Part shown: one piece after another, positions 1-63,197 of the stretch
Position numbering within the stretch: position 1 is the stretch's first letter
Layout of the letters: each line of letters opens with the position of its first letter
Assembly (NCBI GenBank): GCA_964385675.1
Contig: CAYLSF010000001.1
Coordinates: forward strand, 53,651 to 117,650
Length of the DNA stretch: 64,000 bases
Reading direction: 5' to 3'
From: an uncultured Saprospiraceae bacterium
Lineage (GTDB): Bacteria; Bacteroidota; Bacteroidia; Chitinophagales; Saprospiraceae
Program-made: the position numbers and the translations under genes
The notes under the pieces: model-generated
The model's database searches: none
Told to the model about the DNA's origin: nothing
The model's input: the letters and a program-made list of their open reading frames with translations, nothing else

Positions 1-670
1 TTTGCTTCTAAAAATCTTAGTTTTGTTTTTAGCTTTTTACATTGAATGACATCATAAAGATATGAACTTGTTTTATTGTTATTATAACGGGTTAGGTTAT
101 TATAAGTTAATTCTAAGCTATGATCATTTGCTAGTTTAATAAGCAGGTTTTTCTTATAGTCATGTGCATGGCCATCTATATTGATATAAATAGGTGCATT
201 GACTGCGCTCTTTAGCAAAGAGATATGCATGTCTACTTGTGATAGGGCATCATCATAATCATCAGACGCAGATATTAAAGTATCTATTGAAGAACCTTCA
301 TGACCAGTAATAAAAATTAGATTGCTGGTGTCTATATCTGATAATATCTCCATAGAAATTTGTGCGTGCCTGAAAAAGTTAGACGCAGAATGACTTAAAG
401 CCAAGATTTCTAATAATGATTTGTACCCTTGGTGATTTTTAGCTAACATTACTAAAGCTCCGCCATCCATAAACGTCGAGCTTAATCCTAAGATAGGTTT
501 AATACCCTGTTTCTTGGCGGACTTATAAAATTGTACTATACCTGCCATACTATTTAAGTCAGTAATAGAGGCAGATTCAAATTCTTGTTGGACTGAGATA
601 TCTACTATCTCTGAAGGCTTGAGAATGCTATCTAATACGCTATAATGACTATAGTTAATAAAGTTGGTCA
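1..670 (-). CDS. dnaE: DNA polymerase III alpha (DnaE-type), N-terminal PHP-domain part; 3' part of gene lies beyond the left window edge
   Basis: Absent from the ORF track because no stop falls in the window. ATG at 670, frame open to position 1. My translation MTNFINYSHYSVLDSILKPSEIV..ITDLNSMAGIVQFYKSAKKQGIKPILG..LAKNHQGYKSLLEI matches the Pol III alpha N-terminus. Confidence 0.7.
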
Positions 671-20445: not shown

Positions 20446-22635
20446 TTATACTGCATGGGGTGATAAATCATCTAGTTCTTTTCTTTCCCATCCATTCAGT
20501 CCTGAAATAGCGGTCATATATCTTCGTTGAACATCTTTCCAACGCGCCCAAAATGAACCATGTGGAATTTCTATGTCTGAGTTTAGAATTTCTCTGGGTC
20601 CGTCGTTCCATCTGCCCCAGCTATTTAATACCAAGACTAAAGGTCCGCCATACTTTTGATGAGTTTCTCTTCTGTCATCAAAACCAATATATGTCATTGC
20701 GTGTGCCCAGTTTCCTTTTCGTCTAGAAACGCCGTTTTCATCCCTTTGCGACGAAAATCCTTCTGAGCCACACGTTATAATAAAAAAGCCTCTATTTAGA
20801 AAGTCGCGAACTTCTTCTGCCGTGTTAAGTTCTGTAGCAGTTCTAAACAAATTATTATCTAAATGCTCGCCTATTCTTTCAGGAGGAGCTTTTTTACCGT
20901 ATTTTCCAGCTATTTTTCCCGAGTATTTTTCTAAGTTTACTCCAAGAGTATCTGTGTAATCTGCTCTTAATAAAGCTCCACAGTTATTTACTAAAACTCT
21001 GGCAGCGGCAGGGCAATACCAGCCATCTCCGTTATGACCACGATACCAGTAAATTGGCTCAAATGCCAATACTCTGTTTCTTTCCGCTGTCTTAGAGACT
21101 TTAGGACACTCTTCTAATCTTCCTGTTACTTCATCTGGTATTCCTAATACAGATTCTAATACCATTGTTCCCAAAGCAGCGTTTTGCGCGGCGTCGGCAA
21201 CGCAATTATGTACACTAAATCCATCGACTATTAAAGAATGGTCGTCTTCTACGGTTACACAGTATACATCACCAGAATAGTCTTGCTTATCTATGTTTTG
21301 TATTCGTACGGGTATCCCATAAGGATTATTGTTAATCTCTATTTGTAGAGTTTCTGGCTCCTGTTTTTTGACAGCTAGTGCGTTGTCACCATAAAAATTT
21401 AGACTAAATGACTCTCTGCTTTGTTTATAAGCTTTTCTAATATTAATGGAACATCTTAAGCCACAGCTATTTGCAATTTCTTGCATAGATTCTATCAAGG
21501 GCTTAGAGACAGATACACCTATAGTTTTGGTAGATTTTTTTGTTTTTTCTATCCCAGCCTGAAAGTATCCATCTCCATCTATCCAGCCTTGGAGTAATGA
21601 TAGTTTTGTTTGTTTGGGACATTTAAGAATTTGGTGGGGCGCTTTTTTACCATATGTATTTTGACATCCTCCCAAACTATATAATAGCTGCGCCAAACCC
21701 ACATTCCCAACTCTAATTTTTGTACAATTGCTAGAATTTGTTTGGGTTGTACAATTTAATCCGAACACATCTTTAATGTATTTAGAAATTTTATTTTGAT
21801 AATAGTATTCTTTGGAACTTAGGGAAAATGTTACTCTTTTAGGTTTTCCTGTATCAGATTTATCAATTGATCCTTCTGCTAAATATGCTCCTATAATATA
21901 AGCTAGTTTATGATCTAATTTAATAAATCTTGGTATGTCATTTTTACTACCTAATGACCGGCAATTTTCTTTATTGGGCTTTTTGTTTCGTTTACAATTC
22001 TTCTCAGTAATGTCACATCCATATTCAGTCATATCAAACCAAACATCTTCTTGTTGTATGTTTGGCTTTCCTAATACTAAATACTCTCCTTTTTTAACGT
22101 CTTTTAGTTGCTTTTTAACAAAATTTGTATCTGAAGGAGATTTAATTACTGGAACTTCATGATCTGGCGTCGCCACCAAGCTCCTATGATAATTAGATAC
22201 ACTTACTGATAAAAGTCCGTCTTCTGCACTTTTAGTAATTAGGTGTGTTACTGTCTTAGTATTTCCAAGGTGGGTAATAACCTTATCTCCAATAGATATT
22301 TGTTCTATTGGTTTTTTAGAGCCGTCTGCCATTAAAACCATAGCGCCCGCTTTAAAACATGATCCACGAGTTTGACCAGGGCCCGGTAAAGATTCTGGGT
22401 ACTCTTTTAATACATGCACAAATGGTACTACAAGCTTACCTTTAGCATTGTCTGCAAAACCATATGCATGAGCAGCGTCTGTTCCAAACGCATATTCCGC
22501 CTCATCTCTCAGAGCTTCTTTTTCTTCTTCTGAATATAAGGCTCCAGCAAAACCGCCTTCATACATTTTAATAATGTCTTTGCAGCTTTTATCTTGCTTG
22601 GGATTTTGGTCCCACTGTTTGAATAATTTAGGCAT
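20446..22635 (-). CDS. Papain-like (C1-type) cysteine peptidase interrupted by an intein at the catalytic Cys
   Basis: The extein reads GQTRGS|[intein]|CVADAAQN, giving Gln and Cys spaced as in papain. Then NWAHAMTYIGF (His) and VLNSWGRW (Asn-Ser-Trp-Gly). Confidence 0.65.
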   Translation of the reverse strand: MPKLFKQWDQNPKQDKSCKDIIKMYEGGFAGALYSEEEKEALRDEAEYAFGTDAAHAYGFADNAKGKLVVPFVHVLKEYPESLPGPGQTRGSCFKAGAMVLMADGSKKPIEQISIGDKVITHLGNTKTVTHLITKSAEDGLLSVSVSNYHRSLVATPDHEVPVIKSPSDTNFVKKQLKDVKKGEYLVLGKPNIQQEDVWFDMTEYGCDITEKNCKRNKKPNKENCRSLGSKNDIPRFIKLDHKLAYIIGAYLAEGSIDKSDTGKPKRVTFSLSSKEYYYQNKISKYIKDVFGLNCTTQTNSSNCTKIRVGNVGLAQLLYSLGGCQNTYGKKAPHQILKCPKQTKLSLLQGWIDGDGYFQAGIEKTKKSTKTIGVSVSKPLIESMQEIANSCGLRCSINIRKAYKQSRESFSLNFYGDNALAVKKQEPETLQIEINNNPYGIPVRIQNIDKQDYSGDVYCVTVEDDHSLIVDGFSVHNCVADAAQNAALGTMVLESVLGIPDEVTGRLEECPKVSKTAERNRVLAFEPIYWYRGHNGDGWYCPAAARVLVNNCGALLRADYTDTLGVNLEKYSGKIAGKYGKKAPPERIGEHLDNNLFRTATELNTAEEVRDFLNRGFFIITCGSEGFSSQRDENGVSRRKGNWAHAMTYIGFDDRRETHQKYGGPLVLVLNSWGRWNDGPREILNSDIEIPHGSFWARWKDVQRRYMTAISGLNGWERKELDDLSPHAV
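21205..22359 (-). mobile_element. Intein (385 aa) with LAGLIDADG homing endonuclease
   Basis: Starts CFKAGAMVLMADGS and ends GFSVHN|C. LAGLIDADG motifs IIGAYLAEGS and LLQGWIDGDGY. Boundary codons checked. Confidence 0.8.
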
Positions 22636-24017: not shown

Positions 24018-24045
24018 ATTATACAAACAAGCAGATAGTTTTTAA
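24018..24045 (-). promoter_or_regulatory. Promoter-like element TTAAAA-N16-TATAAT (TGTATAATA type)
   Basis: Minus strand: -10 TATAAT at 24023..24018 preceded by TG, and TTAAAA at 24045..24040. It lies in the gap upstream of 23677..23979. Confidence 0.35.
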
Positions 24046-30127: not shown

Positions 30128-30461
30128 TGTTACTCTCTAAACTTTTGAGACGTTTTTCTAATCTATCCAACTCGTCCTGATTGCGTTCTATTGGATTCTT
30201 AAGAAAAGTGTTATAAAGCTCTATAAAAGATTGATTGGTTTGTTTTTGTCTTTCGACAGCTATTTCTTTTTTATTAGGAAGATTTTCAAGAATGTCTTCC
30301 AACTCCTCGTGAGTAACGAATTCTTCATCTAAATGAGGAGTTATATATGTAGATATCTCTGGGCCAAATAAGCCTAGAAAGATACCTATTAAGACGATAA
30401 AGCCATCTCTAGACGAAACTTTTTTGTTTTGAGAACCGTTTTCATTAATAATTTCAGACAT
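30102..30461 (-). CDS. Membrane protein with coiled-coil tail
   Basis: TM segment FIVLIGIFLGLFG followed by a charged helical region. Confidence 0.5.
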   Translation of the reverse strand: MSEIINENGSQNKKVSSRDGFIVLIGIFLGLFGPEISTYITPHLDEEFVTHEELEDILENLPNKKEIAVERQKQTNQSFIELYNTFLKNPIERNQDELDRLEKRLKSLESNNGSIQTQS

Positions 30462-31438
30462 TAATAACGAACCGAAAACTGAGCTGATTTTTGAAATTGT
30501 TTTATGCTCCTGGCCCCAAAATAACTCATGGAACTACGAAGCCCTTCGCCGTATTGTCTCACCAATTCTTTTATTTTTAGTCCATTACAAGTTAATTCTC
30601 TGGTAGTTCCTTCAACGTACTTAGGTTCTTCTCTGTAAATAGACTGTATTTTTGATGATGCTGAACCGCTATATATCTTATACACCTGACCGTTGTGGTC
30701 AGTTCTGGTTTTAGCAGGACTATCTACACATGCTGCTATGATAGACCCAGCCATAGTTATGTTAGCGCCCAAAGCCAAAGCTTTGCACATATCTTGGGGT
30801 TCTCGGATGCCTCCATCAGCTATTACTTTGGCTTTTTTACTTAAGCACTTATAGTGCCTTCCTTTTGACATTTCTGCTAAAGTTGAAGCCATAGGAGAGC
30901 AACATCCCGTTGCATTTTTAGTAGTACATCCTGCGCCAAAAGCAATGCCCACCCTAACGGCAACTACATTTTTCATTTCTGCTAAAAATTTATACCCTTT
31001 ATAGGATGCGACATTCCCAGCGATTATTTGGGTATCGGGTAAATCAAGCTGAGATATAAATTTTCCTACTCGCTCTGACGCCCCATTAGCAACGTCTACA
31101 CAAAATATTCTACAGCCATTATCATAAAGCTGATTGTATCTTTTCTGCTCTTCTTTTGAAATGCCTATAGCACACGCCACATCAGGAGGAGATTGGAGAT
31201 AAGATTTGGTTTGTTCGTCTATACTAGAAAATCTATGCAATATAGAGTAGCCGCCCGCTTCATATATTTTTTTAGCTACCTCTGAGTCTACAACATCAAC
31301 CATCGGAGGAGCTATAAGAGGAATATCAATTCTAATATCGCCTATTTTAGCGCTAATATCTATATCATCTCTAGAATCAATATTAGAAATGGTATCTGGG
31401 ATTAAGTCTATGTTAGAATAATCTAATGATTGTAGCAT
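30461..31438 (-). CDS. IMPDH/GMP reductase-family oxidoreductase (GMP reductase-like, no CBS insert)
   Basis: Catalytic-loop-like VGIAFGAGCTTK, ADGGIR and GSASS. The 325-aa length is close to GuaC. Confidence 0.65.
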   Translation of the reverse strand: MLQSLDYSNIDLIPDTISNIDSRDDIDISAKIGDIRIDIPLIAPPMVDVVDSEVAKKIYEAGGYSILHRFSSIDEQTKSYLQSPPDVACAIGISKEEQKRYNQLYDNGCRIFCVDVANGASERVGKFISQLDLPDTQIIAGNVASYKGYKFLAEMKNVVAVRVGIAFGAGCTTKNATGCCSPMASTLAEMSKGRHYKCLSKKAKVIADGGIREPQDMCKALALGANITMAGSIIAACVDSPAKTRTDHNGQVYKIYSGSASSKIQSIYREEPKYVEGTTRELTCNGLKIKELVRQYGEGLRSSMSYFGARSIKQFQKSAQFSVRY

Positions 31439-34268: not shown

Positions 34269-34772
34269 TTAGCGCTGTGTAGATTTATGCTCAATATCCA
34301 TATAGCTATCTGGTTTAATACAAATAGTTATATTGTGAAAAGCTAACATTCCAGATTCATGTAGAGCAAATAACAAATCATTGTCTTGTAATCCTCCTCT
34401 TCCACATCCAATCCAAGGCATTATCACTCTTTTGTTTTCACCAAGGTCACGAGATATTTTTTCTAAGCCAAGCTGGATTGCTATTTTATTAGCATAAACT
34501 TTTTTGTCGTATCCATAGTTATATTGTGAATATAGATTATATATTTTAAATCCTAGTGGATTAGGTAGGATTGCAGACGTATAAGTACCTAGTTTATTAT
34601 AGCTGCCTTTTTTTGTTTTCCTGTCTGCTTCTTCTACTTCTGGAAATGCATCTTTTATAGACTTGGCAACGCCAGAGTTCATTGTATTAAAACAATTGCA
34701 GCCATGTATAGCCGCGTCATAATTTTCTGTTTTAATTTCTTGAACAATATTTGCTGATTTTTCAATCCACAT
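34269..34772 (-). CDS. Macro-domain (ADP-ribose-binding/hydrolase) protein
   Basis: AAIHGCNCFNTMNSGVAKSIKDAFPE and IGCGRGGL resemble the HxxNC..MGxGIA and G-rich loops of small macro domains. Confidence 0.55.
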   Translation of the reverse strand: MWIEKSANIVQEIKTENYDAAIHGCNCFNTMNSGVAKSIKDAFPEVEEADRKTKKGSYNKLGTYTSAILPNPLGFKIYNLYSQYNYGYDKKVYANKIAIQLGLEKISRDLGENKRVIMPWIGCGRGGLQDNDLLFALHESGMLAFHNITICIKPDSYMDIEHKSTQR

Positions 34773-35044: not shown

Positions 35045-35221
35045 TTATTTGGCTTCATCTTTATTTTCGTATGCTTCTTTTCCTAGGTAGGCCTTATATG
35101 TTTGATCGTCTAAGTCAAATGGACATCCGTGCTTTAATGCATATCGTAGTCTTCTTCTTAACTTGCCGCTATTCAAAATACGCAGCAATTTATTTGATCG
35201 AAAAAGTTTTTTACGCTTCAT
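35045..35221 (-). CDS. Small basic ORF (58 aa)
   Basis: Below the track cutoff. ATG at 35221 overlaps the upstream stop. Translation MKRKKLFRSNKLLRILNSGKLRRRLRYALKHGCPFDLDDQTYKAYLGKEAYENKDEAK, with TAA at 35045. Confidence 0.35.
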   Translation of the reverse strand: MKRKKLFRSNKLLRILNSGKLRRRLRYALKHGCPFDLDDQTYKAYLGKEAYENKDEAK

Positions 35222-35498
35222 GATTTTTCACCAGCTGTTTAAATTTTTGACAAATAGAAATAATATTGTCTATGTTTTTTTCATCTACAATCAGCGTATC
35301 AGTATACTCATTTCTAGTTTTTAGTCCAACTATATATCTATATGCTATTTTGATTCTTTGCCATAGGCTGTGGTATGAGTCTAATGTGGCATAAATTTGT
35401 AACTCCGGCTGATTGTCAAATACGTCTAGATCAAATCTAATACTATGTGTATGATCCGAACATGAACAATCAACTATAACTATGGACTTATCGCACAT
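35211..35498 (-). CDS. Hypothetical protein
   Basis: 95-aa ORF whose C-terminal 17 codons are duplicated at 35849..35900. Confidence 0.5.
   Translation of the reverse strand: MCDKSIVIVDCSCSDHTHSIRFDLDVFDNQPELQIYATLDSYHSLWQRIKIAYRYIVGLKTRNEYTDTLIVDEKNIDNIISICQKFKQLVKNHEA
35237..35288. repeat. 52-nt dispersed repeat, copy A
   Basis: By hand alignment, 45 of 52 positions are identical to 35849..35900. Confidence 0.7.
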
Positions 35499-35530
35499 TA
35501 TTTTTATCCTTATGTTTGTGTATAAGAAGT

Positions 35531-35601
35531 ACGCTAGCCCCGAATCGCACGGAGAACTATTGGTTGGAAGCCAATTATTTTTCTAGTTAAACTACTAGCG
35601 C
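35531..35601 (-). tRNA. tRNA-Gly(UCC)-like gene with non-canonical T-loop
   Basis: Hand-folded 71-nt cloverleaf in an ORF-free, locally GC-rich gap. The acceptor stem is 7 bp with G1-U72 and the D stem is 4 bp. The anticodon stem ATTGG/CCAAT has loop CU-UCC-AA, and the T stem is CTCCG/CGGGG. T-loop is UGCGAUU (G55) and the D-loop lacks GG. No CCA is encoded. Confidence 0.55.
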
Positions 35602-35650: not shown

Positions 35651-35839
35651 TCATATAGGCTTAGTCCTTTCTTCGTTGATTTTATCAGATCCATACCACC
35701 AAATATGCCTGAGAGGATAGTTTCTTCTAGTACCATCTTGAAAAACTACGCCTAAAGTTTCTGATTCCGGCATAAAAGCTTCTACATTCTTAAGTATTAG
35801 CTTATTAGATGAGTCTCTAGGAGAGATTGTTAGATTCAT
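35651..35839 (-). CDS. Hypothetical protein
   Basis: 62-aa ORF. Confidence 0.45.
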   Translation of the reverse strand: MNLTISPRDSSNKLILKNVEAFMPESETLGVVFQDGTRRNYPLRHIWWYGSDKINEERTKPI

Positions 35840-35933
35840 TGTGTAGCTCCTTAAATCTTTGATAAATAGAAATAATGTTGTTTATGTCTTTTTCATCTAC
35901 TTTTGCAGTTTTGTAGTCTTTTTTACGAAACAT
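35817..35933 (-). CDS. Small ORF (38 aa), truncated paralog of the C-terminus of 35211..35498
   Basis: AGGAAA 7 nt before the ATG at 35933. Compare ..KVDEKDINNIISIYQRFKEL.. with ..IVDEKNIDNIISICQKFKQL.. Confidence 0.3.
   Translation of the reverse strand: MFRKKDYKTAKVDEKDINNIISIYQRFKELHNESNNLS
35849..35900. repeat. 52-nt dispersed repeat, copy B
   Basis: See copy A at 35237..35288. Confidence 0.7.
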
Positions 35934-35953
35934 ATATTTTTCCTAATTGAGTC

Positions 35954-36445
35954 TTAACTACCCTTAGATTTTTCTCTGTTTTTTATATATTCTACAGCAT
36001 TAGAATAATATTCTTCTATATCTTCATCGTTTACAACAGTGCCAATTCTTGCGGCGTACCAAGGAAGCCCTGGAGAATTAATAAGACCGGACAATTGAAC
36101 GGTTGTAAGATGGGCACAATATTTGTAATAAACGTCCTCTAAAAAGAAGCTTGTTTCCCGGTCTACTTTAACAGGATAGTCTTTCCACCTTGATATAGGT
36201 CCGGCGCCATATTCAACAAAATGTTCCATAACGGATGGAATAGAAGGACCATATTTTTGTTTCACTATAGCATCGTCAAAAAGCGGACTTTTGTTAAGCG
36301 CAAGATGAAACCCATGAGCAATAATACATAGTTTTACTAATTTAAGCAAGGACATATACTCATAGTCACGCTTAGCCCTTTCCAAAAACCATACAGAAAC
36401 TTCTACAGCAGTCATTTTTACTTGATTAGGATCTGAGATATTCAT
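35954..36445 (-). CDS. Panacea (DUF4065, SocA-like) antitoxin-domain protein
   Basis: VEVSVWFLERAK..MSLLKLVKLCIIAHGFHLALNKSPLFDDAIVKQKYGPSIPSVMEHF fits the DUF4065 pattern (LKLxKLxY..hG..L......LF.......GPV.p.v). Confidence 0.65.
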   Translation of the reverse strand: MNISDPNQVKMTAVEVSVWFLERAKRDYEYMSLLKLVKLCIIAHGFHLALNKSPLFDDAIVKQKYGPSIPSVMEHFVEYGAGPISRWKDYPVKVDRETSFFLEDVYYKYCAHLTTVQLSGLINSPGLPWYAARIGTVVNDEDIEEYYSNAVEYIKNREKSKGS

Positions 36446-36457
36446 CTTTTAAATTTC

Positions 36458-36805
36458 TTATCTACAATCATTATAAAAATCTATATAATCTAAATAACAT
36501 TTGGCTCCCTTGACAATATCAGAAATACTGTCTTTAGACCAAAAACAATAAACGTCTACTAAGTTTTCTAATTTATTTATTAAACTTAGATTATCACTTA
36601 AAATTCTTATTTTTCTAGGGTCTGTAATCCAAAAATTAGGTTGATTTAGTTCATCTGTAGATATTTGTGATGGTTCTATATAGATTTTACAATATGTTCC
36701 ATTACTATATCCTATGAGTTCTGAGGGAGTTAGGTACTTGTAAACCGTTTTTAGTTAGAGCAAACGGCAATTGCGGACTGAGGGCATCAGCGTAATAGCA
36801 TACAT
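36458..36805 (-). pseudogene. Interrupted ORF: 16-codon ATG-initiated segment, in-frame TAA, then 98 open codons without any ATG/GTG/TTG
   Basis: My translation is MYAITLMPSVRNCRLL*LKTVYKYLTPSELIGYSNGTYCKIYIEP..YLDYIDFYNDCR*. The TAA is at 36757..36755, next to an A5 run (36752..36748). The ORF ends 12 nt before the Panacea ATG. Confidence 0.4.
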
Positions 36806-36845
36806 ATTCTTCTTGTCCGTTTTTGAATTTATATAGCGCTAAAGA

Positions 36846-36916
36846 TCCTCGTCTCGGCTCTGCCCCGAGCTTTTCCCGGTACAAACGGGGAGTTTTGCTG
36901 ACTAAACTAACGAGGA
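36846..36916 (-). tRNA. tRNA-like cloverleaf, anticodon UGU (Thr), with non-canonical D and T loops
   Basis: GC-rich island. Acceptor TCCTCGT/ACGAGGA is 7 bp perfect, with U8 and A14 present, and the D stem is GTTT/AAAC. The anticodon stem CCCCG/CGGGA has one C-A mismatch and loop UU-UGU-AC. T stem is CTCGG/CCGAG and T-loop is GGCAGAG. 71 nt. Confidence 0.4.
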
Positions 36917-36922
36917 GCATAT

Positions 36923-36930
36923 ATTATACA
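36923..36930 (-). promoter_or_regulatory. TGTATAAT -10-like element placing a transcription start at the 5' end of the tRNA-like element
   Basis: Minus strand reads TGTATAAT-ATATGC-T(36916). The cloverleaf begins 7 nt after the -10. Confidence 0.35.
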
Positions 36931-37048
36931 TTACACACAGCTTGTTCGAATATTTATTGTGTATCACATATATGTGTTGCTTCGAACCTATATTTACGAG
37001 CCACAATGAGAATCCCTAGCAACTCTTCATATTTAATTATAATACACT

Positions 37049-37240
37049 TCAAAACCCTATAAATACTTTACTTGCAAAGTAAATTAGCCACATAAACATA
37101 ATGAGTACTATTCCGAAACATCCCATCATAGGAAAATCATAGTCTGATTTGGTTCTTGTAGACTCATAAACTATCATTCCAACAATCATACATATTGTAA
37201 TAAGCGTTGGAATTGTCCAAATACCTAGTGTTATGCTCAT
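37049..37240 (-). CDS. Small membrane protein
   Basis: 63 aa with two hydrophobic segments. Confidence 0.5.
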   Translation of the reverse strand: MSITLGIWTIPTLITICMIVGMIVYESTRTKSDYDFPMMGCFGIVLIMFMWLIYFASKVFIGF

Positions 37241-37535: not shown

Positions 37536-37757
37536 TTAACGTTTGATAAAAAATCTAATACTTTTAAGTATACTGTACGATACCAAGATAAGAATCGTAA
37601 CAGGGATATAAATTGGATATGCTAAAGTAGACAACAAAAGGTCTATGTCATTGGGGCTGCTTTTCACTAGTATCGGGAATAAATATCTGTTAAATAGAAT
37701 AGAAAATACTATGCCTATTAATAGGTAAACCGTTAGAAATATTATGCTATTAGCCAT
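37536..37757 (-). CDS. Small membrane protein
   Basis: 73 aa with two hydrophobic segments. Confidence 0.5.
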   Translation of the reverse strand: MANSIIFLTVYLLIGIVFSILFNRYLFPILVKSSPNDIDLLLSTLAYPIYIPVTILILVSYSILKSIRFFIKR

Positions 37758-38677
37758 TTAACCGCCTCTGTATTGTGCCATGCTTCTTCTGAGTAATATT
37801 TATTATAATAATCTTTAGCAGCCTGAGAACATAAAGCATAAAAATCAGAGTCTTGTTTTAATTCTCTAGCTATTTTTCTTGCTAAGACAAGGTTTCCTTG
37901 TTCTACTGTAGTATATGGATGTAGTTCCTTTTGAGTAGAAGAATTTTTATATCCAATACAAGGTATACCAAAATAAGCACAATTTAATTGAAAGGTGCCA
38001 GCGGCATACTCTCTCATCAAATGCACGCCATATTTAAATGCTGATAAAGTAGACATCCAATTTGACCAGTTTGCAAATGGTAAATATTGCACTTTTTTAT
38101 TAATTACTCGCTCATTATCATGTCTTCGGCCCATAGTTGGCGCCCAAACATTTTCTCCTAATTGAGACGCTATAACATACGAATCTGCTCCACCATACCA
38201 TCTAGTAAAATTTCCTCCTATAATGGGATCAGGTAATTGAAGCCTTGTCTCTTTAGGTATGGCATCTTCTATCATCAGTGACTGTAGATGTAAAACATTT
38301 TTTGTTGGCAATAGCCCTGCATAATAATTTATATCACTTTTATTATGGCATAGGAGAGCATCGGCCTGGGACAAAAGCTTTAAATATGTTTCTTGTTTAT
38401 CCGTTTCCCATTCATGCCAATAATTATTTGCTCCTTCTTGCATAAAAGCTAACTTATTACAGTTGTCTTTAATGCGAGCTACAACATCTACAATATTGTA
38501 ATTCCAGTTTTTAGGTAGAATTACTACCCCTGTAGTGTACGTATTGTCGTTAATTTTGCCAAGGTTTTGATGGTCTGCATTTAAACTGCATTGCCATGCA
38601 AATTCTGTGCGCATATTACAAAAAGTTCTAGCAACTTTTCCAAAATGCGTATTTTCCGAAAAGAAACAAATACTCAT
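37742..38677 (-). CDS. Hypothetical protein, last gene of the glycosylation operon (possible glycosyltransferase)
   Basis: 311 aa with a 4-nt overlap to the upstream gene. No clear motif. Confidence 0.45.
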   Translation of the reverse strand: MSICFFSENTHFGKVARTFCNMRTEFAWQCSLNADHQNLGKINDNTYTTGVVILPKNWNYNIVDVVARIKDNCNKLAFMQEGANNYWHEWETDKQETYLKLLSQADALLCHNKSDINYYAGLLPTKNVLHLQSLMIEDAIPKETRLQLPDPIIGGNFTRWYGGADSYVIASQLGENVWAPTMGRRHDNERVINKKVQYLPFANWSNWMSTLSAFKYGVHLMREYAAGTFQLNCAYFGIPCIGYKNSSTQKELHPYTTVEQGNLVLARKIARELKQDSDFYALCSQAAKDYYNKYYSEEAWHNTEAVKWLIA

Positions 38678-47718: not shown

Positions 47719-48231
47719 TTATGGGTTTGCAGATACTATTCCTATTTCAAATGTTGATCCGGCTCCACCATCATTAATTCTAACATATCTATTCGAGCTA
47801 TTTATAACCCAGCCGCTTAGAGGATTAGAAAATGCCATTATACCGCTTGGATAGATGGGTATAACGGTTGATTGAGCATATCCTGTTTGCCCTTGAGCTA
47901 TAGTATTGTCTAGCTCTATAAACTGATTAGCTCCTGTACTAGTATTTTCAACAGAGAGAAATTTAAGCCATCCTCCATCAAGAGATAAGCTGATATTATT
48001 ACCAAATAAGTTTCTTGACAGATTTTGAAAATCAATAGTATCTGATCCGCCCGGAGCTAAAAGTCCAGTACCGTAAAATACCTTGTTAGCTTGACTAAGG
48101 CCTGTGCCATCAGTTAGCTGGGTCGTTCTGCTCATTGTCACAGAATCTCTAGCTTGATTATCGCCAAGTCCGGTATCAGTTTGCGTCCAATTAAGCTCAA
48201 CCCGAAGGGAGCTGGTTGTTGTAATAGCCAT
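47719..48231 (-). CDS. Ser/Thr/Gly-rich putative virion structural protein
   Basis: 170 aa, Cys-free, with composition like 24054..25637. No SD sequence. A TGTATAATA motif ends 5 nt before the ATG. Confidence 0.5.
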   Translation of the reverse strand: MAITTTSSLRVELNWTQTDTGLGDNQARDSVTMSRTTQLTDGTGLSQANKVFYGTGLLAPGGSDTIDFQNLSRNLFGNNISLSLDGGWLKFLSVENTSTGANQFIELDNTIAQGQTGYAQSTVIPIYPSGIMAFSNPLSGWVINSSNRYVRINDGGAGSTFEIGIVSANP

Positions 48232-48236
48232 ACACT

Positions 48237-48244
48237 ATTATACA
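48237..48244 (-). promoter_or_regulatory. TGTATAAT -10-like element (possible leaderless transcript)
   Basis: Minus strand reads GGTGTATAATAGTGTATG. The predicted start falls on or next to the A of the ATG at 48231. Confidence 0.35.
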
Positions 48245-48261
48245 CCAGAACACCGCTTATT

Positions 48262-48465
48262 TTACAGTGTATTTTCTTCTTCTTTATAGTTATCAATAGC
48301 ATTTACTAATGCATCTTCAAAAGATTTCCCAATCATTTGCCTCGGAGTACGAAGTACAAAAGTGTTTTTATCGCTCGGATTTTTAGGACTTATAATCAAG
48401 GCGTATTTCTTTAGTACCTTGATAAGGTCTTCTGTCAAGTCGACATTAAAATCTTGGGTCTCCAT
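48262..48465 (-). CDS. Hypothetical protein
   Basis: 67-aa ORF overlapping the pnkp stop by 20 nt. Confidence 0.45.
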   Translation of the reverse strand: METQDFNVDLTEDLIKVLKKYALIISPKNPSDKNTFVLRTPRQMIGKSFEDALVNAIDNYKEEENTL

Positions 48466-50899
48466 TAGTCCCTCTTTGTTTGACCTGTAAAAATTTGCCT
48501 AGATTTTCGACAGATGGATCTTCTAAGATATCTTTAGCTAGTTTAAATTGAGCAATAGAATCTGACAATTTATATCTAATCTTTTTTCTTGACATTAGCT
48601 TGTCGAGTTTAGCCGGATTAGTATAATCAGGACCATATACTATTCTTAAATATTCTGGATTTCGTACTTTTATGTAGGGCGCTATATCTAAATTATAAAC
48701 CTTATCAGGCTTGACCACGCACCCTTCTATTTTATTAGATTTTAAAAAGGCCTGGAAATCTGATAATAGCTCTTCAGAAATATTATTTAAGTCTAATAAT
48801 ATTGACTTAGATTTATTAATTTTACTAAACATGTCGCTATTTGACTCATTCCAATAGGTCTTGGTAGACCCATCAGTATAAACATCTTTGAGTATAGCGA
48901 ACGGCTCTATTCTAGCCGGCTCATCCGATCCATAAATATCTACCTGTTTTTTGAAAAGTTCTAGATAGGCATTTTGTGATTCTACACTTATATAGTTCTT
49001 GTGTATATTTTTAATACCTTTGGACAAGCTATATTTGTGATGTCCATATTTTTCAATATATTCTGTTTTTGTTAGGTTGTCAAAATCTTTATTTGTAGAA
49101 ATAGATTCTTCAAGCTTATTGAGTACTTTATCTAGATTTCCTTCGGCTCTTAATCTTGAATGTTCTGAGGCTGCATGATAGTATCCGTAAAAAGACTTAT
49201 CTATTAGCCCTTCTCCGAGCAATCTCCATGGAAGGGCCTCGCAATCTAAAATCGTAAATAAGCCACCCTGACTAAAGAAGTCTTGTCTTTCTTCAATTAG
49301 TCTGGCATATTCTTCTTTTAATATTTCATTAAGCTCTTCTTTAAATCTATATCCATTTTTTGTTACTCCATAACACTTCTCGGGATCTGAATATAGATAA
49401 ATTTGCGCTCGCGAGCCCATAAACTTTGGCTGTAAGCACACTTGTTCTATTCCATTCTTCCTATAATAATTAAAGGCCCAATCTAGACTTTCTAGTTCTG
49501 TGTCGGTTTTATCAGCGGGACACATAGTAGGAGATAAATAGCAAATATTTTGCTTTGCCATTCTTGAGGCTAGCTTAAGATTATCTTCGTCTATTTGAAT
49601 ATCTCTAGTAAAAGATAAGGTCTGAAGCCTATCGTCACAATATGCGTTCTTTGAATTAACTTTCAGGAAGTGATGCCGGCCTTTATCAAAATATACTGCG
49701 GTTAGACAGTTACCATATACCGCGCCAGTGTCTATACCTATATTTGAACTGTTAACAAAAGCTCTTTGCAACGCTATATGACCCCAAATATGTTTCTTAT
49801 GAGATTTATTTTTTTCTCTATCAACAAACCACAACTTGTCTTCTAAAGTTTCTTTTTCTTCTAAACGATATCTATAATTTCTTTGATTTCTTAGAGCTTC
49901 TCCAGAGTTCTTTTTTAGAAACTTTGTTTGGCAAGGACTGTGAGTAATAATAGCTTCTTTTGTTTCAACCCAATGGTAAGACAGTTTTAATAGATCTAAA
50001 AATTTTTTTTGTAGCTCTGGGCTCTCAGCTAAAAATACAGCGTCATTAAAATATTTATTGAGAATGTCTTGAGGGACTTGAGTATCTTTTTTAGTCCAAA
50101 AAACTTCTGCAAAATGATCGTGATTACCTCGTACTAGTCTAATTAAGTCTAGATTTTCTTTAATAAGATTGATTGTTTTTTCAGCTGAGTCTTTTTCTTT
50201 GTTCTTATCAAAGATGTCTCCTATTAAAATAATATCTTGAAATTTCTTTGCTCTAAGCTGATTAAGCATTTCTTCTAATTCTCTATAGCAGCCATGTATA
50301 TCTCCAACTACTGCATATTTTGAATTATTGTCTAGCCTTAAACCATTCTTAGGTTCTTCTTCTCTTATTATCTCATGAGAGATTTCGGCATGAGACTTAA
50401 TATTATATACTTGTGCAAAATTTTTGTAAGAGTTTATACTCTTAAGGGTCGTTTCCTTAAATTTTCTAACATGATTCTTAATAATAAAATTATTTCTATC
50501 GCTATAGTAATCTTTTGTGTTCTTGTAATTAAAGGTAACAAAGCACAAATTGTAATGATGCTTTTTAGCTAATGTGGTTATTTTTTCATGGAAGGAAGGA
50601 CTGAGAGCAGTGCTGTCTACAACAACTATGTCTTGATTAGCTGGGTAACTGATAACTGATTCTAGTTCAGTCCAGAGCATATTAAAAGCTTGATCTGATA
50701 CTGCAAAAAGTTCTGAATCATGCTTGTCTAAATCCGATCCTATTATCATCCGCCTCAGATTATCGGAGGATATATAGTGAACTGTTTCAAATAGTCCCGA
50801 CGCAATCGGTAAGAAATTATTCTCGCACCAATAGCTTTTTCCACAATTACTTGGGCCAACTGTAACTACAATAGTATTCTTTTTAATTTTTAATGACAT
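48446..50899 (-). CDS. pnkp: Polynucleotide kinase-phosphatase-ligase (bacterial Pnkp-type RNA repair enzyme)
   Basis: Three modules in Pnkp order. The P-loop kinase has GPSNCGKS. The metallophosphatase has VVGDIHGC, GDIFDK and RGNHD. The adenylyltransferase/ligase has LQPKFMGSRAQIY, similar to the KxMGSR lysine motif. 817 aa. Confidence 0.8.
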   Translation of the reverse strand: MSLKIKKNTIVVTVGPSNCGKSYWCENNFLPIASGLFETVHYISSDNLRRMIIGSDLDKHDSELFAVSDQAFNMLWTELESVISYPANQDIVVVDSTALSPSFHEKITTLAKKHHYNLCFVTFNYKNTKDYYSDRNNFIIKNHVRKFKETTLKSINSYKNFAQVYNIKSHAEISHEIIREEEPKNGLRLDNNSKYAVVGDIHGCYRELEEMLNQLRAKKFQDIILIGDIFDKNKEKDSAEKTINLIKENLDLIRLVRGNHDHFAEVFWTKKDTQVPQDILNKYFNDAVFLAESPELQKKFLDLLKLSYHWVETKEAIITHSPCQTKFLKKNSGEALRNQRNYRYRLEEKETLEDKLWFVDREKNKSHKKHIWGHIALQRAFVNSSNIGIDTGAVYGNCLTAVYFDKGRHHFLKVNSKNAYCDDRLQTLSFTRDIQIDEDNLKLASRMAKQNICYLSPTMCPADKTDTELESLDWAFNYYRKNGIEQVCLQPKFMGSRAQIYLYSDPEKCYGVTKNGYRFKEELNEILKEEYARLIEERQDFFSQGGLFTILDCEALPWRLLGEGLIDKSFYGYYHAASEHSRLRAEGNLDKVLNKLEESISTNKDFDNLTKTEYIEKYGHHKYSLSKGIKNIHKNYISVESQNAYLELFKKQVDIYGSDEPARIEPFAILKDVYTDGSTKTYWNESNSDMFSKINKSKSILLDLNNISEELLSDFQAFLKSNKIEGCVVKPDKVYNLDIAPYIKVRNPEYLRIVYGPDYTNPAKLDKLMSRKKIRYKLSDSIAQFKLAKDILEDPSVENLGKFLQVKQRGTNGDPRF

Positions 50900-50944: not shown

Positions 50945-51211
50945 TTATTGTTGCAAAAATTGTAGTTTTTCTATAATAGAATTTTTCAACCCCAACTCAT
51001 TAAATAGCGGTATATATCTAGTAATGATGCTTTCTGTATTAAAACCTGCCTGTTCTCTACCGGATAGAATACCGCAAATTTCATAGCGTACAGCTTTAAG
51101 AGTGTTATAGATTAATATTGCATATGCCACATGTTTAGTCTCTAAAAAATATTTAGATATTGTTAATACAAACGCCCCATGTTGTAGGTATGTTATTAAC
51201 TGTATCGCCAA
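50945..51211 (-). CDS. Hypothetical protein (doubtful start)
   Basis: 88-aa ORF between hen1 and pnkp with a 59-nt overlap onto the hen1 3' end. Confidence 0.3.
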   Translation of the reverse strand: MAIQLITYLQHGAFVLTISKYFLETKHVAYAILIYNTLKAVRYEICGILSGREQAGFNTESIITRYIPLFNELGLKNSIIEKLQFLQQ

Positions 51212-52379
51212 TACCTGTTATTGATATTTCTTTATTTTGGCCAAAAATATTTATTATCTGATTAGATAGTTGCTTTAGCGTAAATTCAAACTTATGATCT
51301 TCGTGTCTTAGCTCTATTCCATAGAATGGATTAAATTCTTTGTTTGGCGTAGTAATCAATATTTGGGAGGGTTTTAAACTAAGTAGCCCCTTAAAAATCT
51401 CGGCATGCTTGTCGAGTTCTATATGTTCAATTACTTCAGACATAATGATCGTACAGCCATTTACTGTCTGTTTATCTATTTCGTCAATTGAACTTACTAC
51501 ACTTGCGTTATCTATGCCGTTGTTTTCGATTTTTTTAGAACATTTAATTTGGCAGTCTGGATCTATATCAACACAAATATAATTTTTATGATTCTTTGCT
51601 AGGCGTGTAAGGTATCTGCCCTCGCCAGAGCCAAAATCTATGATAGTGCTATCTTCTGGAATTAAGGAGTTAATGTAGTCGAATCTTGATTCCCAATTAT
51701 TTTTGGGCGACATGTTTAGTTCATATTTCTCACTATTATTGATAAGCTCTTGATATTCGTAGAACTTTTTTTCGCTGTTTCTTAATAGGTTTTGTTTGAA
51801 TAGATACCTGATGAAATATGGCGCGTCAATATCAGATATTAATTGGAAGTATTTTTTGTTTATATTGTCGTCTTTGTATATAGCATCTTGATCTAACGCC
51901 ATATAGAAAGCTACTACCTGAACAAACTTTAAGAAATATTCCAGAGTATGTTTATACGAGCGAATTTTAATACATCTGTAATTAGTCCAATTTTCTGAAG
52001 GGTAATCTTGAATAATAAATTCATGGAAATATTTTTTAATACTTTGGAATGTAGAGTCTCGAACATTAACGTTACTAATTTCCAGTGAGATATCACTAAT
52101 ATCATCATATTTTGTATTTAGACCATCCAACATACCGTCTATCATTTTGTTTATAATAAATGGGTTGTTAAATTTGTTAACGTCTAAATACTCAAAATCT
52201 GAGCCTCCAAATGAACTTTCATCATGACCTTCCATAAATGAAATGTAATATGTTTGTGGGTCTGTAAACCAACCAATCAAATTACCTTTCCTACAGTCTA
52301 TAATACGTGGTCCGCTATCGGGGTTCTTGTTTATAATATAGGAAAAATCTAAATTGTCATTTTTGAGTTTGATGATCAT
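51153..52379 (-). CDS. hen1: Hen1-type RNA 3'-terminal 2'-O-methyltransferase
   Basis: SAM motif IIDFGSGEGRY, then MSEVIEHIE and LRHEDHKFEFT (Hen1 metal/RNA-binding motifs). The N-terminal domain of about 230 aa sits where the Pnkp-ligase-activating domain is expected. Confidence 0.8.
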   Translation of the reverse strand: MIIKLKNDNLDFSYIINKNPDSGPRIIDCRKGNLIGWFTDPQTYYISFMEGHDESSFGGSDFEYLDVNKFNNPFIINKMIDGMLDGLNTKYDDISDISLEISNVNVRDSTFQSIKKYFHEFIIQDYPSENWTNYRCIKIRSYKHTLEYFLKFVQVVAFYMALDQDAIYKDDNINKKYFQLISDIDAPYFIRYLFKQNLLRNSEKKFYEYQELINNSEKYELNMSPKNNWESRFDYINSLIPEDSTIIDFGSGEGRYLTRLAKNHKNYICVDIDPDCQIKCSKKIENNGIDNASVVSSIDEIDKQTVNGCTIIMSEVIEHIELDKHAEIFKGLLSLKPSQILITTPNKEFNPFYGIELRHEDHKFEFTLKQLSNQIINIFGQNKEISITGIGDTVNNIPTTWGVCINNI

Positions 52380-61751: not shown

Positions 61752-63197
61752 TTAGTTTCTCATATTGTTACGAATTTGATCAAGAGTAATTTTATTAACA
61801 ATAACACCATTCTTAAATACTGTTTTAAGCTCGCCTTGCTGCTCTTCCTCTTGGGATACTTGATCTTTTAGGGTGAGCTGGCCATTTACTCTTTCTACCT
61901 TTAACAGGCCTTTTGCTGATTTTTTAGTGCCGTCATCAGTTATAGGGTCCTTATAAACATTATAACCACAGTTTTCATGTTCTACATAAGTACATTTAAC
62001 TGCCCATCCAAATTCATCACGAGTCTTACAATGGTTCCAACTGCCTAATCCTAAAAATACATTAGGATAAAATCCTTTATCAATAAGTCCGTTAAGGATT
62101 CTGTCACATCGATCTAAAGAAATAGCCTCACCATAAACTGCTCCTACTTTAGGATTCAGTCTCTTAAAACCATTTTCATCAATCTCGCCTCCAAAGGTAT
62201 CCCATAACAGCTCTATCGTACCTTTATATTCTGGGCTATTTGGATCTGCATCAGGATCTCCTACTATAATTTTTACAGGGTCTCCACTGTCTCCCCTAAT
62301 AGCACAAGATACTAAGCCATTTTCGTCAGGCGTTCTATTTAAAATTTCATTTTTTAGCTTTGGCATGTACTCTGTAAGAACTCGCCAGTAATCATAAGTA
62401 TCACTGACCAAAGCAAGCAATCCACTTGGAAATGCTTCTGTAACAAGATATTTATAATAGTCAAACTCTGATCCTAAAATCTTAGTACCTGTACTCATAC
62501 AGGCATGTTCACTAGCAAATATCTTGTTTGTAGGGAATGATGCATTATAGTATTTATCAATAGCATAAAATGCGGGCACAGTATCAGATGCATCAAAATT
62601 AACAAAGTGTGCCATTCCAGCAACCATAGATGACTCTGAAGAATTGAGCCCTCTGCAACTAAAATCGTGAAATTGTATGTTTATAAATCCATTGTCACCG
62701 CCTACTCTATCCCATGCTTTTTCTGCAACTTTCCTATATTGATTTAGCGTTGTAGCAGAAGTACTTGGCAACCAAAGTACACAAGACATTAAAGTTTCTA
62801 TATAATTTGTAAGCCAATAAAAATCTTCGTGTGTATTGGTGATTGTTAAAACTGGCACTCTCAATGGGACTTTAGTTCCTTCCGGCAGAGCCTTAATTTC
62901 TATCGGAAGAAAACCAAGTTCATGAAGCTGCCTAATCTTATCTGTGTCAAAAGCAGTATACTTTTCAAATTCTTCTACAACTTCTTCTATATCCCTATCA
63001 AAAAACCCCTTTTGCATTCTTGTAGTAAGATATTCTTGCAAAAAATATTGCAATCCAAAGAATACAATTTCTTTAATTTCTGCGTCTCTTGATGCTCGCG
63101 GAGTCAAATTGCTATAAATCTTTGTAGTCCCAGGAACTAAAAAGTAATCGTGAAAAGTTTTGTAGCTATCAACAGTAAGCAAAGGGTTTTCAATCAT
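61752..63197 (-). CDS. Nicotinamide phosphoribosyltransferase (Nampt/NadV)-family enzyme; candidate Namat-like
   Basis: 481 aa. N-terminal NPLLTVDSYK, IRGDSGDP and GLGSW motifs are typical of the Nampt family. Confidence 0.8.
   Translation of the reverse strand: MIENPLLTVDSYKTFHDYFLVPGTTKIYSNLTPRASRDAEIKEIVFFGLQYFLQEYLTTRMQKGFFDRDIEEVVEEFEKYTAFDTDKIRQLHELGFLPIEIKALPEGTKVPLRVPVLTITNTHEDFYWLTNYIETLMSCVLWLPSTSATTLNQYRKVAEKAWDRVGGDNGFINIQFHDFSCRGLNSSESSMVAGMAHFVNFDASDTVPAFYAIDKYYNASFPTNKIFASEHACMSTGTKILGSEFDYYKYLVTEAFPSGLLALVSDTYDYWRVLTEYMPKLKNEILNRTPDENGLVSCAIRGDSGDPVKIIVGDPDADPNSPEYKGTIELLWDTFGGEIDENGFKRLNPKVGAVYGEAISLDRCDRILNGLIDKGFYPNVFLGLGSWNHCKTRDEFGWAVKCTYVEHENCGYNVYKDPITDDGTKKSAKGLLKVERVNGQLTLKDQVSQEEEQQGELKTVFKNGVIVNKITLDQIRNNMRN

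Follow-up and report, generated by a model that had tools for sequence, protein, structure and literature searches.

The DNA analysed here is a 64-kb window of a 142,144-bp contig obtained from marine-biofilm metagenomes (ENA ERZ23498940 scaffold_54; the sample accession of this record appears in PMC6355793). All coordinates below are those of the window. The contig is a large phage of 142 kb, and the phage genes identified include those for a DnaB-type helicase, a ribonucleotide reductase, a PhoH/terminase-like ATPase, an intein-bearing protein, a macro-domain protein and NAMPT. No close relative was found among the GenBank phages, blastn of the locus region giving no match. Every gene of the window lies on the minus strand, as do the features of the locus described here, and the GC content is 34.4%. 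At this locus a tRNA-like cloverleaf is followed by an interrupted open reading frame (ORF) and then by an intact gene for a protein of the Panacea/DUF4065 antitoxin family, referred to as PanA. Read along the coding strand, the order is orf63, cloverleaf, interrupted ORF, PanA, orf38/orf62, tRNA-Gly, orf95, orf58, orf67 and the macro-domain gene.

A preliminary description of this DNA, made from the letters and their ORFs, had listed a promoter, the cloverleaf, the interrupted ORF and the PanA gene, and every listed element was found where it had been placed. It had also considered that the interruption might be a sequencing indel. This is unlikely, since the region is 100% identical in all the assemblies compared: the stretch 35946..37105 was the same base for base in four assemblies from different runs (two from ENA and two from Logan). 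The PanA protein was found on 13 contigs. Because four independent assemblies are identical, the run of five A residues (A5) and the in-frame TAA are properties of the phage population and not assembly errors.

Table 1. Features of the locus in window coordinates, with the basis of each assignment.
Feature	Position	Strand	Basis and remarks
-10-like box TGTATAAT	36923..36930	minus	Sequence; last T 7 positions before the first acceptor base, 36916
tRNA-derived cloverleaf, 71 nt	36846..36916	minus	ARAGORN -mt, geometry scans, conserved positions, D arm like that of tRNA-Gly
Frame-A ORF, 71 codons	36705..36920	minus	ATG abuts the cloverleaf; coding-like from about 36842 to 36750 only
Frame-B ATG 36805, 16 codons, TAA 36757..36755	36755..36805	minus	Translation; peptide not coding-like
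A5 run in the 50-nt stretch (36754..36705) left open by both frame A and frame B	36748..36752	minus	Sequence
98-codon frame B and stop	36458..36754	minus	Coding-like; without ATG, GTG or TTG; without homologues; residues 26-96 faintly ThiF/E1-like
Panacea/DUF4065 (PanA-type) gene, 163 aa	35954..36445	minus	PF13274, phrog_1281, tblastn
orf38 (35933..35817) and overlapping orf62 (35839..35651)	35651..35933	minus	20 nt after PanA; Shine-Dalgarno (SD)-like sites
tRNA-Gly(UCC)	35529..35601	minus	ARAGORN; Rfam RF00005, 53.5 bits; closes the block opened by the cloverleaf

The tRNA-derived cloverleaf

The cloverleaf was the minimum free energy structure when folded alone, in an 86-nt context and in a 226-nt context. 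Its stems have 7, 4, 5 and 5 bp, and 20 of the 21 pairs are formed. The sole mismatch, C27-A43, lies at the top of the anticodon stem; the 71-nt cloverleaf was thus correctly recognised at the outset, while the term 'perfect-stem' applied to it was a slight overstatement. It is GC-rich, as had been reported (54.8%, against 34.4% for the window). The anticodon loop UUUGUAC gives the anticodon UGU (Thr), with U33, G35, U36 and A37 present, and the spacers are canonical. The D loop is AGUCAGCA (8 nt) and the T loop is GGCAGAG; the variable loop has 4 nt. CCA is not encoded in the cloverleaf, nor is it in the phage's tRNA-Gly.

A sequence was accepted as a tRNA when it scored above 29 bits with the Rfam tRNA model RF00005 or was called by ARAGORN in default mode. 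Default ARAGORN made no call on the cloverleaf, even at -ps80, and RF00005 gave no match to it at E <= 10, on either 5 kb or 121 nt. In mitochondrial mode (-mt), ARAGORN called an mtRNA-Thr(tgt) at 36844..36916. Two more calls, both doubtful, were made by ARAGORN -mt in the same 10 kb: a 55-nt 'tRNA-Trp/Stop' at 36259..36313 (plus strand) inside PanA, and a 'tRNA-Ala' at 37039..37110 (minus strand) overlapping orf63. Because of these doubtful calls, the geometry was tested directly by a strict scan of both strands (7-2-4-(7..11)-4-1-5-7-5-(4..5)-5-7-5-7, with at most one non-pair). Both of them failed the strict scan and are probably false positives. Only the real tRNA-Gly and the cloverleaf passed in the 64 kb, the chance rate being 0.08 per 64 kb for random sequence of the window composition. 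The geometry scan of 622 kb of related phage DNA returned three true tRNAs and one false positive.

When 18 near-universal tRNA positions were inspected, the cloverleaf was found to carry 13, compared with 6.2 expected at random (P = 7e-4). True tRNAs scored 16-18 in the same test, and the false positive scored 8. U8, A14, A21, U33, A37, G53-C61, C56 and all four stems are kept. The five failures all fall in the elbow formed by the D and T loops (GG18-19, Y48, U54, U55 and A58), and of the elbow set G18, G19, U54, U55, C56, A58 and Y48 the cloverleaf has only G19 and C56. Its D arm is nearly identical to that of tRNA-Gly, positions 8-14, 18-19 and 21-24 being the same. It may be noted that A18 and G55 (where nearly all tRNAs have G18 and U55), along with C56, are common to the cloverleaf and the accepted tRNA-Gly (53.5 bits); this may represent a co-varying change of the 18:55 elbow contact in the tRNAs of this phage.

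The cloverleaf lies 1.2 kb from tRNA-Gly, on the same strand and among small ORFs. The codon read by its UGU anticodon, ACA, is the commonest threonine codon of the phage (41%), and tRNA-Gly likewise reads GGA, the commonest glycine codon. The 146 nt downstream of the cloverleaf showed no excess folding (z = +0.33) and no Rfam match, and DNA patterns built from the cloverleaf found no match in IMG/VR.

Geometry scans, conserved positions and ARAGORN -mt therefore bear out the tRNA-like character given to this element in the preliminary description. The cloverleaf is tRNA-derived, with the stems kept and the elbow altered beyond what is seen in standard tRNAs. As default ARAGORN and the Rfam tRNA model both reject it, it is not a canonical translational tRNA. 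It illustrates how phage tRNA-derived RNAs can slip past standard detectors, the stems being kept and the elbow contacts changed.

The interrupted frame and the PanA gene

The frame of the 71-codon ORF that covers the cloverleaf is referred to as frame A, and that of the 98 codons as frame B. Translation of 36805..36455 gave MYAITLMPSVRNCRLL*, then 98 codons, then the stop at 36460..36458. The ATG at 36805 is the first ATG after the cloverleaf, and the 98-codon frame has zero ATG, GTG or TTG codons, so the start-less, interrupted ORF reported earlier (ATG, 16 codons, TAA and 98 codons) was confirmed in each of its parts. The probability of 98 stop-free codons by chance is about 6e-4, and that of the lack of starts alone is 0.05.

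Coding character was scored with a codon-usage log-odds model trained on 37 long genes of the window. The 98-codon frame scored 0.34 bit/codon, like real genes, and its other two frames -0.74 and -0.83. That these codons are unlikely to be non-coding, as had been argued from their number, is thus upheld also by a codon usage like that of the phage's genes. The frame-B signal was strong from about 36730 onward. The frame-B leader MYAITLMPSVRNCRLL, upstream of the TAA, scored -7.07, which is below the first 16 codons of all 37 reference genes. Frame A from the cloverleaf to the A5 run (36842..36750, 31 codons, LALYKFKNGQEEYVCYYADALSPQLPFALTK) scored +6.1, a value within the coding range that was reached by only 1.5% of stop-free off-frame windows. 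Across the cloverleaf itself the codon scores were negative in every frame. The best description of these results is that within 36754..36705, where the A5 run lies, the coding signal moves from frame A to frame B (+1).

As had been pointed out, the ORF 36920..36705 lies in another frame than the 98 codons and covers the cloverleaf, and loss of one A from AAAAA at 36752..36748 (A5 to A4) fuses the two. The codon statistics favour a frameshift at the A-run over the other lesion that had been offered, a nonsense mutation, which is less favoured. Past the cloverleaf, frame A offers no start; the single ATG of the frame, at 36920, falls between the -10-like box (2 nt after it) and the acceptor stem (1 nt before it). 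The gene also seems to have lost its 5' end, or to have had it overwritten by the tRNA-like element. Reassignment of the stop codon was ruled out, all other genes of the window reading normally in table 11. No flanking direct repeats suggesting an insertion were found at the locus.

Expression of the ORF by slippage at the A-run had also been proposed. When the site was tested for a +1 shift, it was seen that AAA-A permits re-pairing, the A-site codon AAC is common (28% of Asn codons) and no stimulator is visible; A5 with such a codon is a poor programmed-slippage site. Five A residues are also too few for transcriptional slippage. On these three grounds (common AAC, no visible stimulator, short A5) a programmed +1 shift is judged unlikely.

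Two smaller observations were made in the same region. The N-terminus of orf62 (35651..35839) weakly resembles the frame-B peptide across the TAA (36796..36695), with 31% identity over 36 aa; as support for a nonsense lesion and a paralogue, this likeness (shuffle p about 0.016, uncorrected) was judged insufficient. A 22-nt direct repeat of 82% identity links 36211..36232 (in PanA, ..VMEHFVE..) with 36684..36705, in a short out-of-frame ORF, MEHIVKSI (ATG 36703), inside the 98-codon frame. The SD-like site of this short ORF, AGGA at 7 nt from its ATG, is the best in the region; the link is probably due to chance.

Homologues of the 98-aa frame were sought widely. None was found in 5.8 billion proteins (word-indexed), in phages (tblastn), in IMG/VR or in JGI metagenomes, and the sole matches from exhaustive HMMER searching of 1.84 billion representatives were two artefacts from repeat proteins. 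There was also no match in Pfam, PHROGs, PADLOC or NCBIfam. The one lead concerned a 264-aa ThiF-type protein, PDB 9egc, residues 65-137 of which align with ORF residues 26-96 at E = 0.0076; the aligned 9egc fragment is itself a clear member of PF00899. The same register was recovered in pairwise shuffles (p about 1e-7) and in hhalign, with probabilities of 37% and 17% for 3- and 6-sequence profiles, respectively. In a reverse search with a ThiF hidden Markov model (HMM), which gave this register too, the ORF came top of 465 six-frame segments with E = 0.007 when the seeding subfamily was included. When the HMM was built from E. coli MoeB, E. coli ThiF and a Salmonella ThiF-family protein, the ORF still came first, at an E-value of 4.1, which is not significant.

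PF00899 gave no match to the ORF at E <= 10. The Gly-rich ATP loop GxGxxG was absent in any frame, and the NLxRQ motif was absent from the ORF. The C-terminal half of the ThiF fold is missing, the ORF ending where PanA begins. Upstream extensions in frame A or frame B brought no gain in ThiF score and no likeness to ThiF N-termini. AlphaFold2 returned a predicted local distance difference test (pLDDT) value of 48 for the ORF alone and 42 with two ThiF fragments, too low for a fold search. The similarity to the ThiF/E1 fold is hence suggestive and borderline, and we consider it somewhat likelier to be misleading than real. It would point away from a classical toxin and towards a gene fragment. 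The earlier suggestion that the ORF may be the cognate toxin was not supported, as it has no homologue and no toxin-family match, and this borderline likeness is its sole lead.

PanA matched Pfam PF13274 with 28.8 bits (cut-off 25.7, E = 2.5e-6; profile positions 1-50 of 113) and phrog_1281 with E = 1.2e-24 over residues 9-159. In tblastn it showed 28-33% identity, over 80-94% of the length, to phage proteins annotated as PanA/DUF4065. The Panacea/DUF4065 assignment made in the preliminary description thus stood: the PF13274 score is above the cut-off, the phage homologues are full-length, and the profile failure that had been named as a danger to it did not occur. With NF047745 (SocA), PanA scored 31.9 bits (9e-8), below the equivalog cut-off of 190 bits, so that by its profile score it is taken as a SocA relative and not a SocA equivalog. 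The gene is intact, encodes the Panacea domain only and has a codon score of 0.40 bit/codon. Its ATG, at 36445, is 12 nt after the stop 36460..36458. No close relative of PanA was found in IMG/VR, in metagenomes or in the 5.8-billion-protein set, and genomes gave one distant match.

Of 2,281 DUF4065 proteins, about half belong to conserved two-gene loci of toxin-antitoxin type, with a gap <= 100 nt (PMC8832971). The antitoxin comes first in 943 and the toxin in 325 of 1,268 such loci (PanAT), and many of the toxins (PanT) act on translation or tRNA (PMC8832971). In annotated phages, PanT directly follows PanA. In the present locus, the upstream frame is 12 nt and orf38 20 nt away from PanA, both within this 100-nt limit. 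An architecture conserved across species was not found: neither neighbour has homologues and PanA has no close relative. An intact partner was also not found upstream, where the frame has no start, comes after an in-frame TAA and does not share the register of the coding-like frame A. The toxin-antitoxin locus envisaged in the preliminary description is therefore not borne out, the architecture not being conserved and PanT lying more often downstream (943 vs 325, PMC8832971).

Transcription signals and the accessory region

The box TGTATAAT at 36930..36923 had been described as a promoter. The box is there, but it is only -10-like. It has no -35 partner at the 16-18 nt spacing of sigma-70 promoters, it was absent from the promoter-scan calls, and TATAAT occurs in the window at chance level (147 observed vs 149 expected). 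Promoter-like sites in the region numbered 12 in the promoter scan, against 10.7 by chance. The 8-mer TGTATAAT as such occurs 14 times against 6.2 expected, on both strands, and 0 of 100 shuffles reached 14; the copies share no common upstream or -35 motif. Copies are seen, for example, at 24018..24025, 36923..36930 and 48237..48244 (minus strand), and three of the six coding-strand copies are intergenic. One copy lies 5 nt before the ATG of the gene 47719..48231, which could mean a leaderless start. The position of TGTATAAT, 7 nt before the acceptor stem, is suggestive of a promoter of the tRNA-like gene, and nothing more. Because no coding-strand terminator was predicted between 37800 and 35400, co-transcription of the whole block is plausible.

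Of the small genes after PanA, orf38 and orf62 gave no family match. Both have an ATG and an SD-like site, AGGA for orf38, which begins 20 nt downstream of PanA, and AAGGAG for orf62. orf38 copies only the C-terminal motif of orf95 (35211..35498, minus strand), with 68% identity over 22 aa (VDEKDINNIISIYQRFKEL vs VDEKNIDNIISICQKFKQL), a likeness that indicates duplication or fragmentation of small genes around tRNA-Gly. A search with the macro-domain neighbour was empty. A 311-aa neighbour (37742..38677, minus strand) without Pfam or PHROG match had relatives on 54 IMG/VR contigs, at 37-50% identity. The small genes of the locus, all of which form singleton clusters, were absent from all 54 of these contigs, few of which carry tRNAs. 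Taken together, these comparisons mark the locus as a fast-changing accessory region in which gene fragments are to be expected. In the gene table of the contig, the 311-aa gene stands at the end of a run of glycosyltransferase/epimerase-type genes (to about 47200), and the accessory region starts directly after it.

A complete Pnkp-Hen1 pair is present 12 kb from the locus. Pnkp (48446..50899, minus strand, 817 aa) has kinase (AAA_33), Metallophos and PNKP_ligase (112 bits) modules, and the adjacent Hen1 (51153..52379, minus strand, 408 aa) has Hen1_N (129 bits) and a methyltransferase domain. Bacterial Pnkp-Hen1 repairs RNA cut by ribotoxins (PMC3675462, PMC4411300), and for phage tRNAs a role in getting round defences that target tRNA has been proposed (PMC10264068). 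The presence of the pair suggests pressure from host defences that cut RNA or tRNA.

Elsewhere in the window, a 729-aa protein (20446..22635, minus strand) carries an intein (Hint/Intein_splicing) with a LAGLIDADG homing-endonuclease domain. Auxiliary metabolic genes, all on the minus strand, include the macro-domain gene (34269..34772; phrog_335, 1e-37), a NAMPT/NAPRTase-type gene (61752..63197) and a gene of the GMP reductase/IMPDH family (30461..31438).

Interpretation and comparison with known systems

Our preferred explanation, held tentatively and with slightly less than even confidence, is that the locus is a patch of the phage's tRNA and accessory region, in which an orphan PanA lies beside a tRNA-like gene of non-canonical type and the recent remnant of a gene, and not one designed module. 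The tRNA-like gene would probably be transcribed with its neighbours, or from its own -10-like box, and fold as the cloverleaf. The product would probably act as a non-standard tRNA-like RNA, and may also serve as a cutting point for RNase P/Z. The protein gene next to it would have been disabled recently, leaving frames A and B +1 out of register at the A5 run with no usable start after the cloverleaf; no full-length product would be expected from it, and it may be the former partner of PanA. The orphan PanA could plausibly neutralise a host-encoded toxin as counter-defence, given that the phage also encodes Pnkp-Hen1 RNA repair. The setting, with Pnkp-Hen1 and phage tRNAs, makes such a role plausible for the orphan PanA and the tRNA-like RNA alike.

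Several points weigh against this explanation. In folding energy the cloverleaf does not stand out (z = -1.4). Its stems, perfect but for one pair, in combination with an altered elbow hint at selection for some particular function as an RNA. Frame A gives a modest signal, at the 12th percentile of coding windows. A single inserted A is insufficient to account for the state of the gene, because frame A too is without a start after the cloverleaf. Moreover, the 98 codons are still open and have good codon usage, so that the lesion must be recent or the frame still in use. The counter-defence role of PanA is drawn from genomic context, and the locus is represented by a single phage population.

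One may instead regard the cloverleaf as a working tRNA-Thr(UGU) that reads ACA/ACG or replaces a host tRNA-Thr cut by an anticodon nuclease, the neighbours being incidental. Its exact tRNA geometry with U33, G35, U36 and A37 speaks for this, as does the codon preference of the phage, ACA making up 41% of its threonine codons and the other phage tRNA reading the top glycine codon, GGA. The accepted tRNA-Gly has the same A18/G55, which shows that the phage tolerates a non-standard elbow; Pnkp-Hen1 is encoded in the same genome, and phage tRNAs have been described as an escape from tRNA-targeting defences (PMC10264068). We nevertheless consider it unlikely, though it deserves serious thought: the T54-A58 pair on which the T loop is built has given way to G54 and G58, U55 and Y48 are lost, and neither Rfam (E <= 10, 121 nt) nor default ARAGORN at lowered thresholds recognises the RNA. 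In addition, the 1-72 pair is U-A, not the G-C used by E. coli threonyl-tRNA synthetase. That the cloverleaf is no more than a chance structure inside the 71-codon ORF 36920..36705 is hardly credible. The joint chance of its geometry and conserved positions is roughly 1e-4, the codon scores across it are negative in every frame, and the 71-aa product has no homologue, against which can be set only that one assembly's annotation calls this ORF, that the folding z is -1.4 and that ARAGORN -mt gives two doubtful calls in the same 10 kb.

The protein-coding part of the locus can also be read otherwise. In a live toxin-antitoxin pair, the ORF would be translated weakly, through a +1 slip from frame A to frame B at ACU-AAA-AAC or read-through of the frame-B UAA, and PanA would neutralise the product. 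The 12-nt gap would fit an operon, and toxin-first PanAT loci do exist (325 of 1,268, PMC8832971). Each frame is open and coding-like on its side of the A5 run, and every assembly carries the lesion. On AAAAA, tRNA-Lys would re-pair perfectly after a +1 shift. The only ATG of frame A, at 36920, however, directly precedes a cloverleaf of -23 kcal/mol whose codons are not coding-like; the A-site AAC is common (28% of Asn codons) and lacks the stop, rare codon or SD stimulator seen in prfB; and five A residues are too few for transcriptional slippage. UAA is the stop least prone to read-through, which would call for a suppressor, no suppressor tRNA was found in the window, and the ORF matches no toxin family. 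We regard such a pair as very improbable. Still less probable, and in our view remote, is an extension of it in which cloverleaf, interrupted frame and PanA form one RNA-gated toxin switch. An RNase P-type cut at the 5' end of the cloverleaf would remove the AUG at 36920, 1 nt before the acceptor stem, and so prevent translation of the toxin. On transcripts left uncut, ribosomes could pass through the cloverleaf and would then need a +1 slip on A-AAA-A; the A-site codon in the +1 frame, ACG (Thr), could be decoded by the UGU tRNA-like RNA itself, and PanA would buffer any toxin made. In a milder version, an elbow-less tRNA-Thr mimic would act as a decoy for a host tRNA-targeting effector and form, with PanA and Pnkp-Hen1, a tRNA-centred counter-defence set.

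The partner of PanA might, alternatively, lie downstream, as orf38 and/or orf62 in antitoxin-first order, the upstream ORF being unrelated debris. This would agree with the commoner order of PanAT loci (943 of 1,268, PMC8832971), with the PanT that directly follows PanA in annotated phages, and with the proximity of orf38 (20 nt, AGGA) and the AAGGAG site of orf62. We think it improbable, as orf38 has only 38 aa and is a copy of the orf95 C-terminal motif, and as orf38 and orf62 match no toxin or defence family and have no homologue outside the phage. A similarly small chance is given to the 98-codon frame being an ordinary small protein made from a non-standard start (ATA 36715 or an ATC), possibly a P-loop-less ThiF/E1-like one. 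Its codon usage is like that of real genes with no further lesion over 98 codons, and residues 26-96 align with ThiF-type proteins in one consistent register (9egc, E = 0.0076); but no purine- or A-rich leader precedes any ATA, ATC or ATT, all 60 of the 60 reference genes inspected begin with ATG, and the ThiF signal fails PF00899, falls to E = 4 without the seeding subfamily, reaches only 17-37% in hhalign and lacks GxGxxG and NLxRQ.

The patch of tRNA-like gene, gene remnant and orphan PanA remains the reading that we favour. If its parts work as we infer, a large virulent-type marine phage with a lone Panacea antitoxin, a tRNA-Thr mimic of altered elbow and Pnkp-Hen1 would point to heavy pressure from host toxins acting on tRNA or translation, and the locus would offer a testable case of a phage using an antitoxin domain for counter-defence. 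As a single-genome observation, its value is that of a lead and not of a finding.

When compared with PanA-PanT pairs (PMC8832971; e.g., that of Escherichia phage PhiR47_1), the locus is alike in having a phage-borne, single-domain PanA of typical size with an ORF less than 100 nt away on each side. It differs in that the upstream neighbour is start-less and broken by a stop or frameshift, and the neighbours are unconserved and resemble no PanT cluster. Most phage PanA matches are in temperate phages, whereas in the present 142-kb phage lysogeny genes are not to be seen in the window. Like phage tRNA regions such as the T4 tRNA cluster with its interspersed small ORFs, and like phage tRNAs proposed to escape anticodon nucleases (PMC10264068), the locus has a tRNA-shaped gene that is surrounded by small accessory ORFs and lies 1.2 kb away from a bona fide tRNA. 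The anticodon of the cloverleaf, like those of phage tRNAs, fits a preferred A-ending codon of the phage. Unlike them, the cloverleaf is without U54-A58, G18-U55 and Y48, and is rejected by standard detectors. Non-standard elbows are known from metazoan mitochondrial tRNAs and from the staphylococcal cell-wall tRNA-Gly, which is non-proteinogenic. The cloverleaf resembles these in its intact stems and divergent D and T loops, and in being called by ARAGORN in mitochondrial mode only; its setting, a phage of a marine bacterium, is different.

The T4 protein Dmd is a phage counter-defence of antitoxin type, directed against RnlA/LsoA. Like Dmd, and like orphan antitoxins next to decayed toxin genes, PanA is an intact antitoxin-family gene in a phage with no intact toxin beside it. 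ORF residues 26-96 match beta2 to beta4 of the Rossmann fold of ThiF/MoeB/E1 proteins (PF00899; 9egc chain A); unlike these proteins, the ORF lies below Pfam detection, has neither the Gly-rich ATP loop nor the Arg/Asp motifs, and misses the C-terminal half. Further, the two overlapping frames offset by +1, with a run that allows the P-site tRNA to re-pair, recall prfB and the structural genes of Listeria phage PSA, in both of which programmed +1 frameshifting is known. The present locus differs from these in having no slow A-site codon, stop, SD-like stimulator or conserved partners, and an upstream frame without a credible start. The elements seen here are of known kinds, and the locus is an unusual variant of them.

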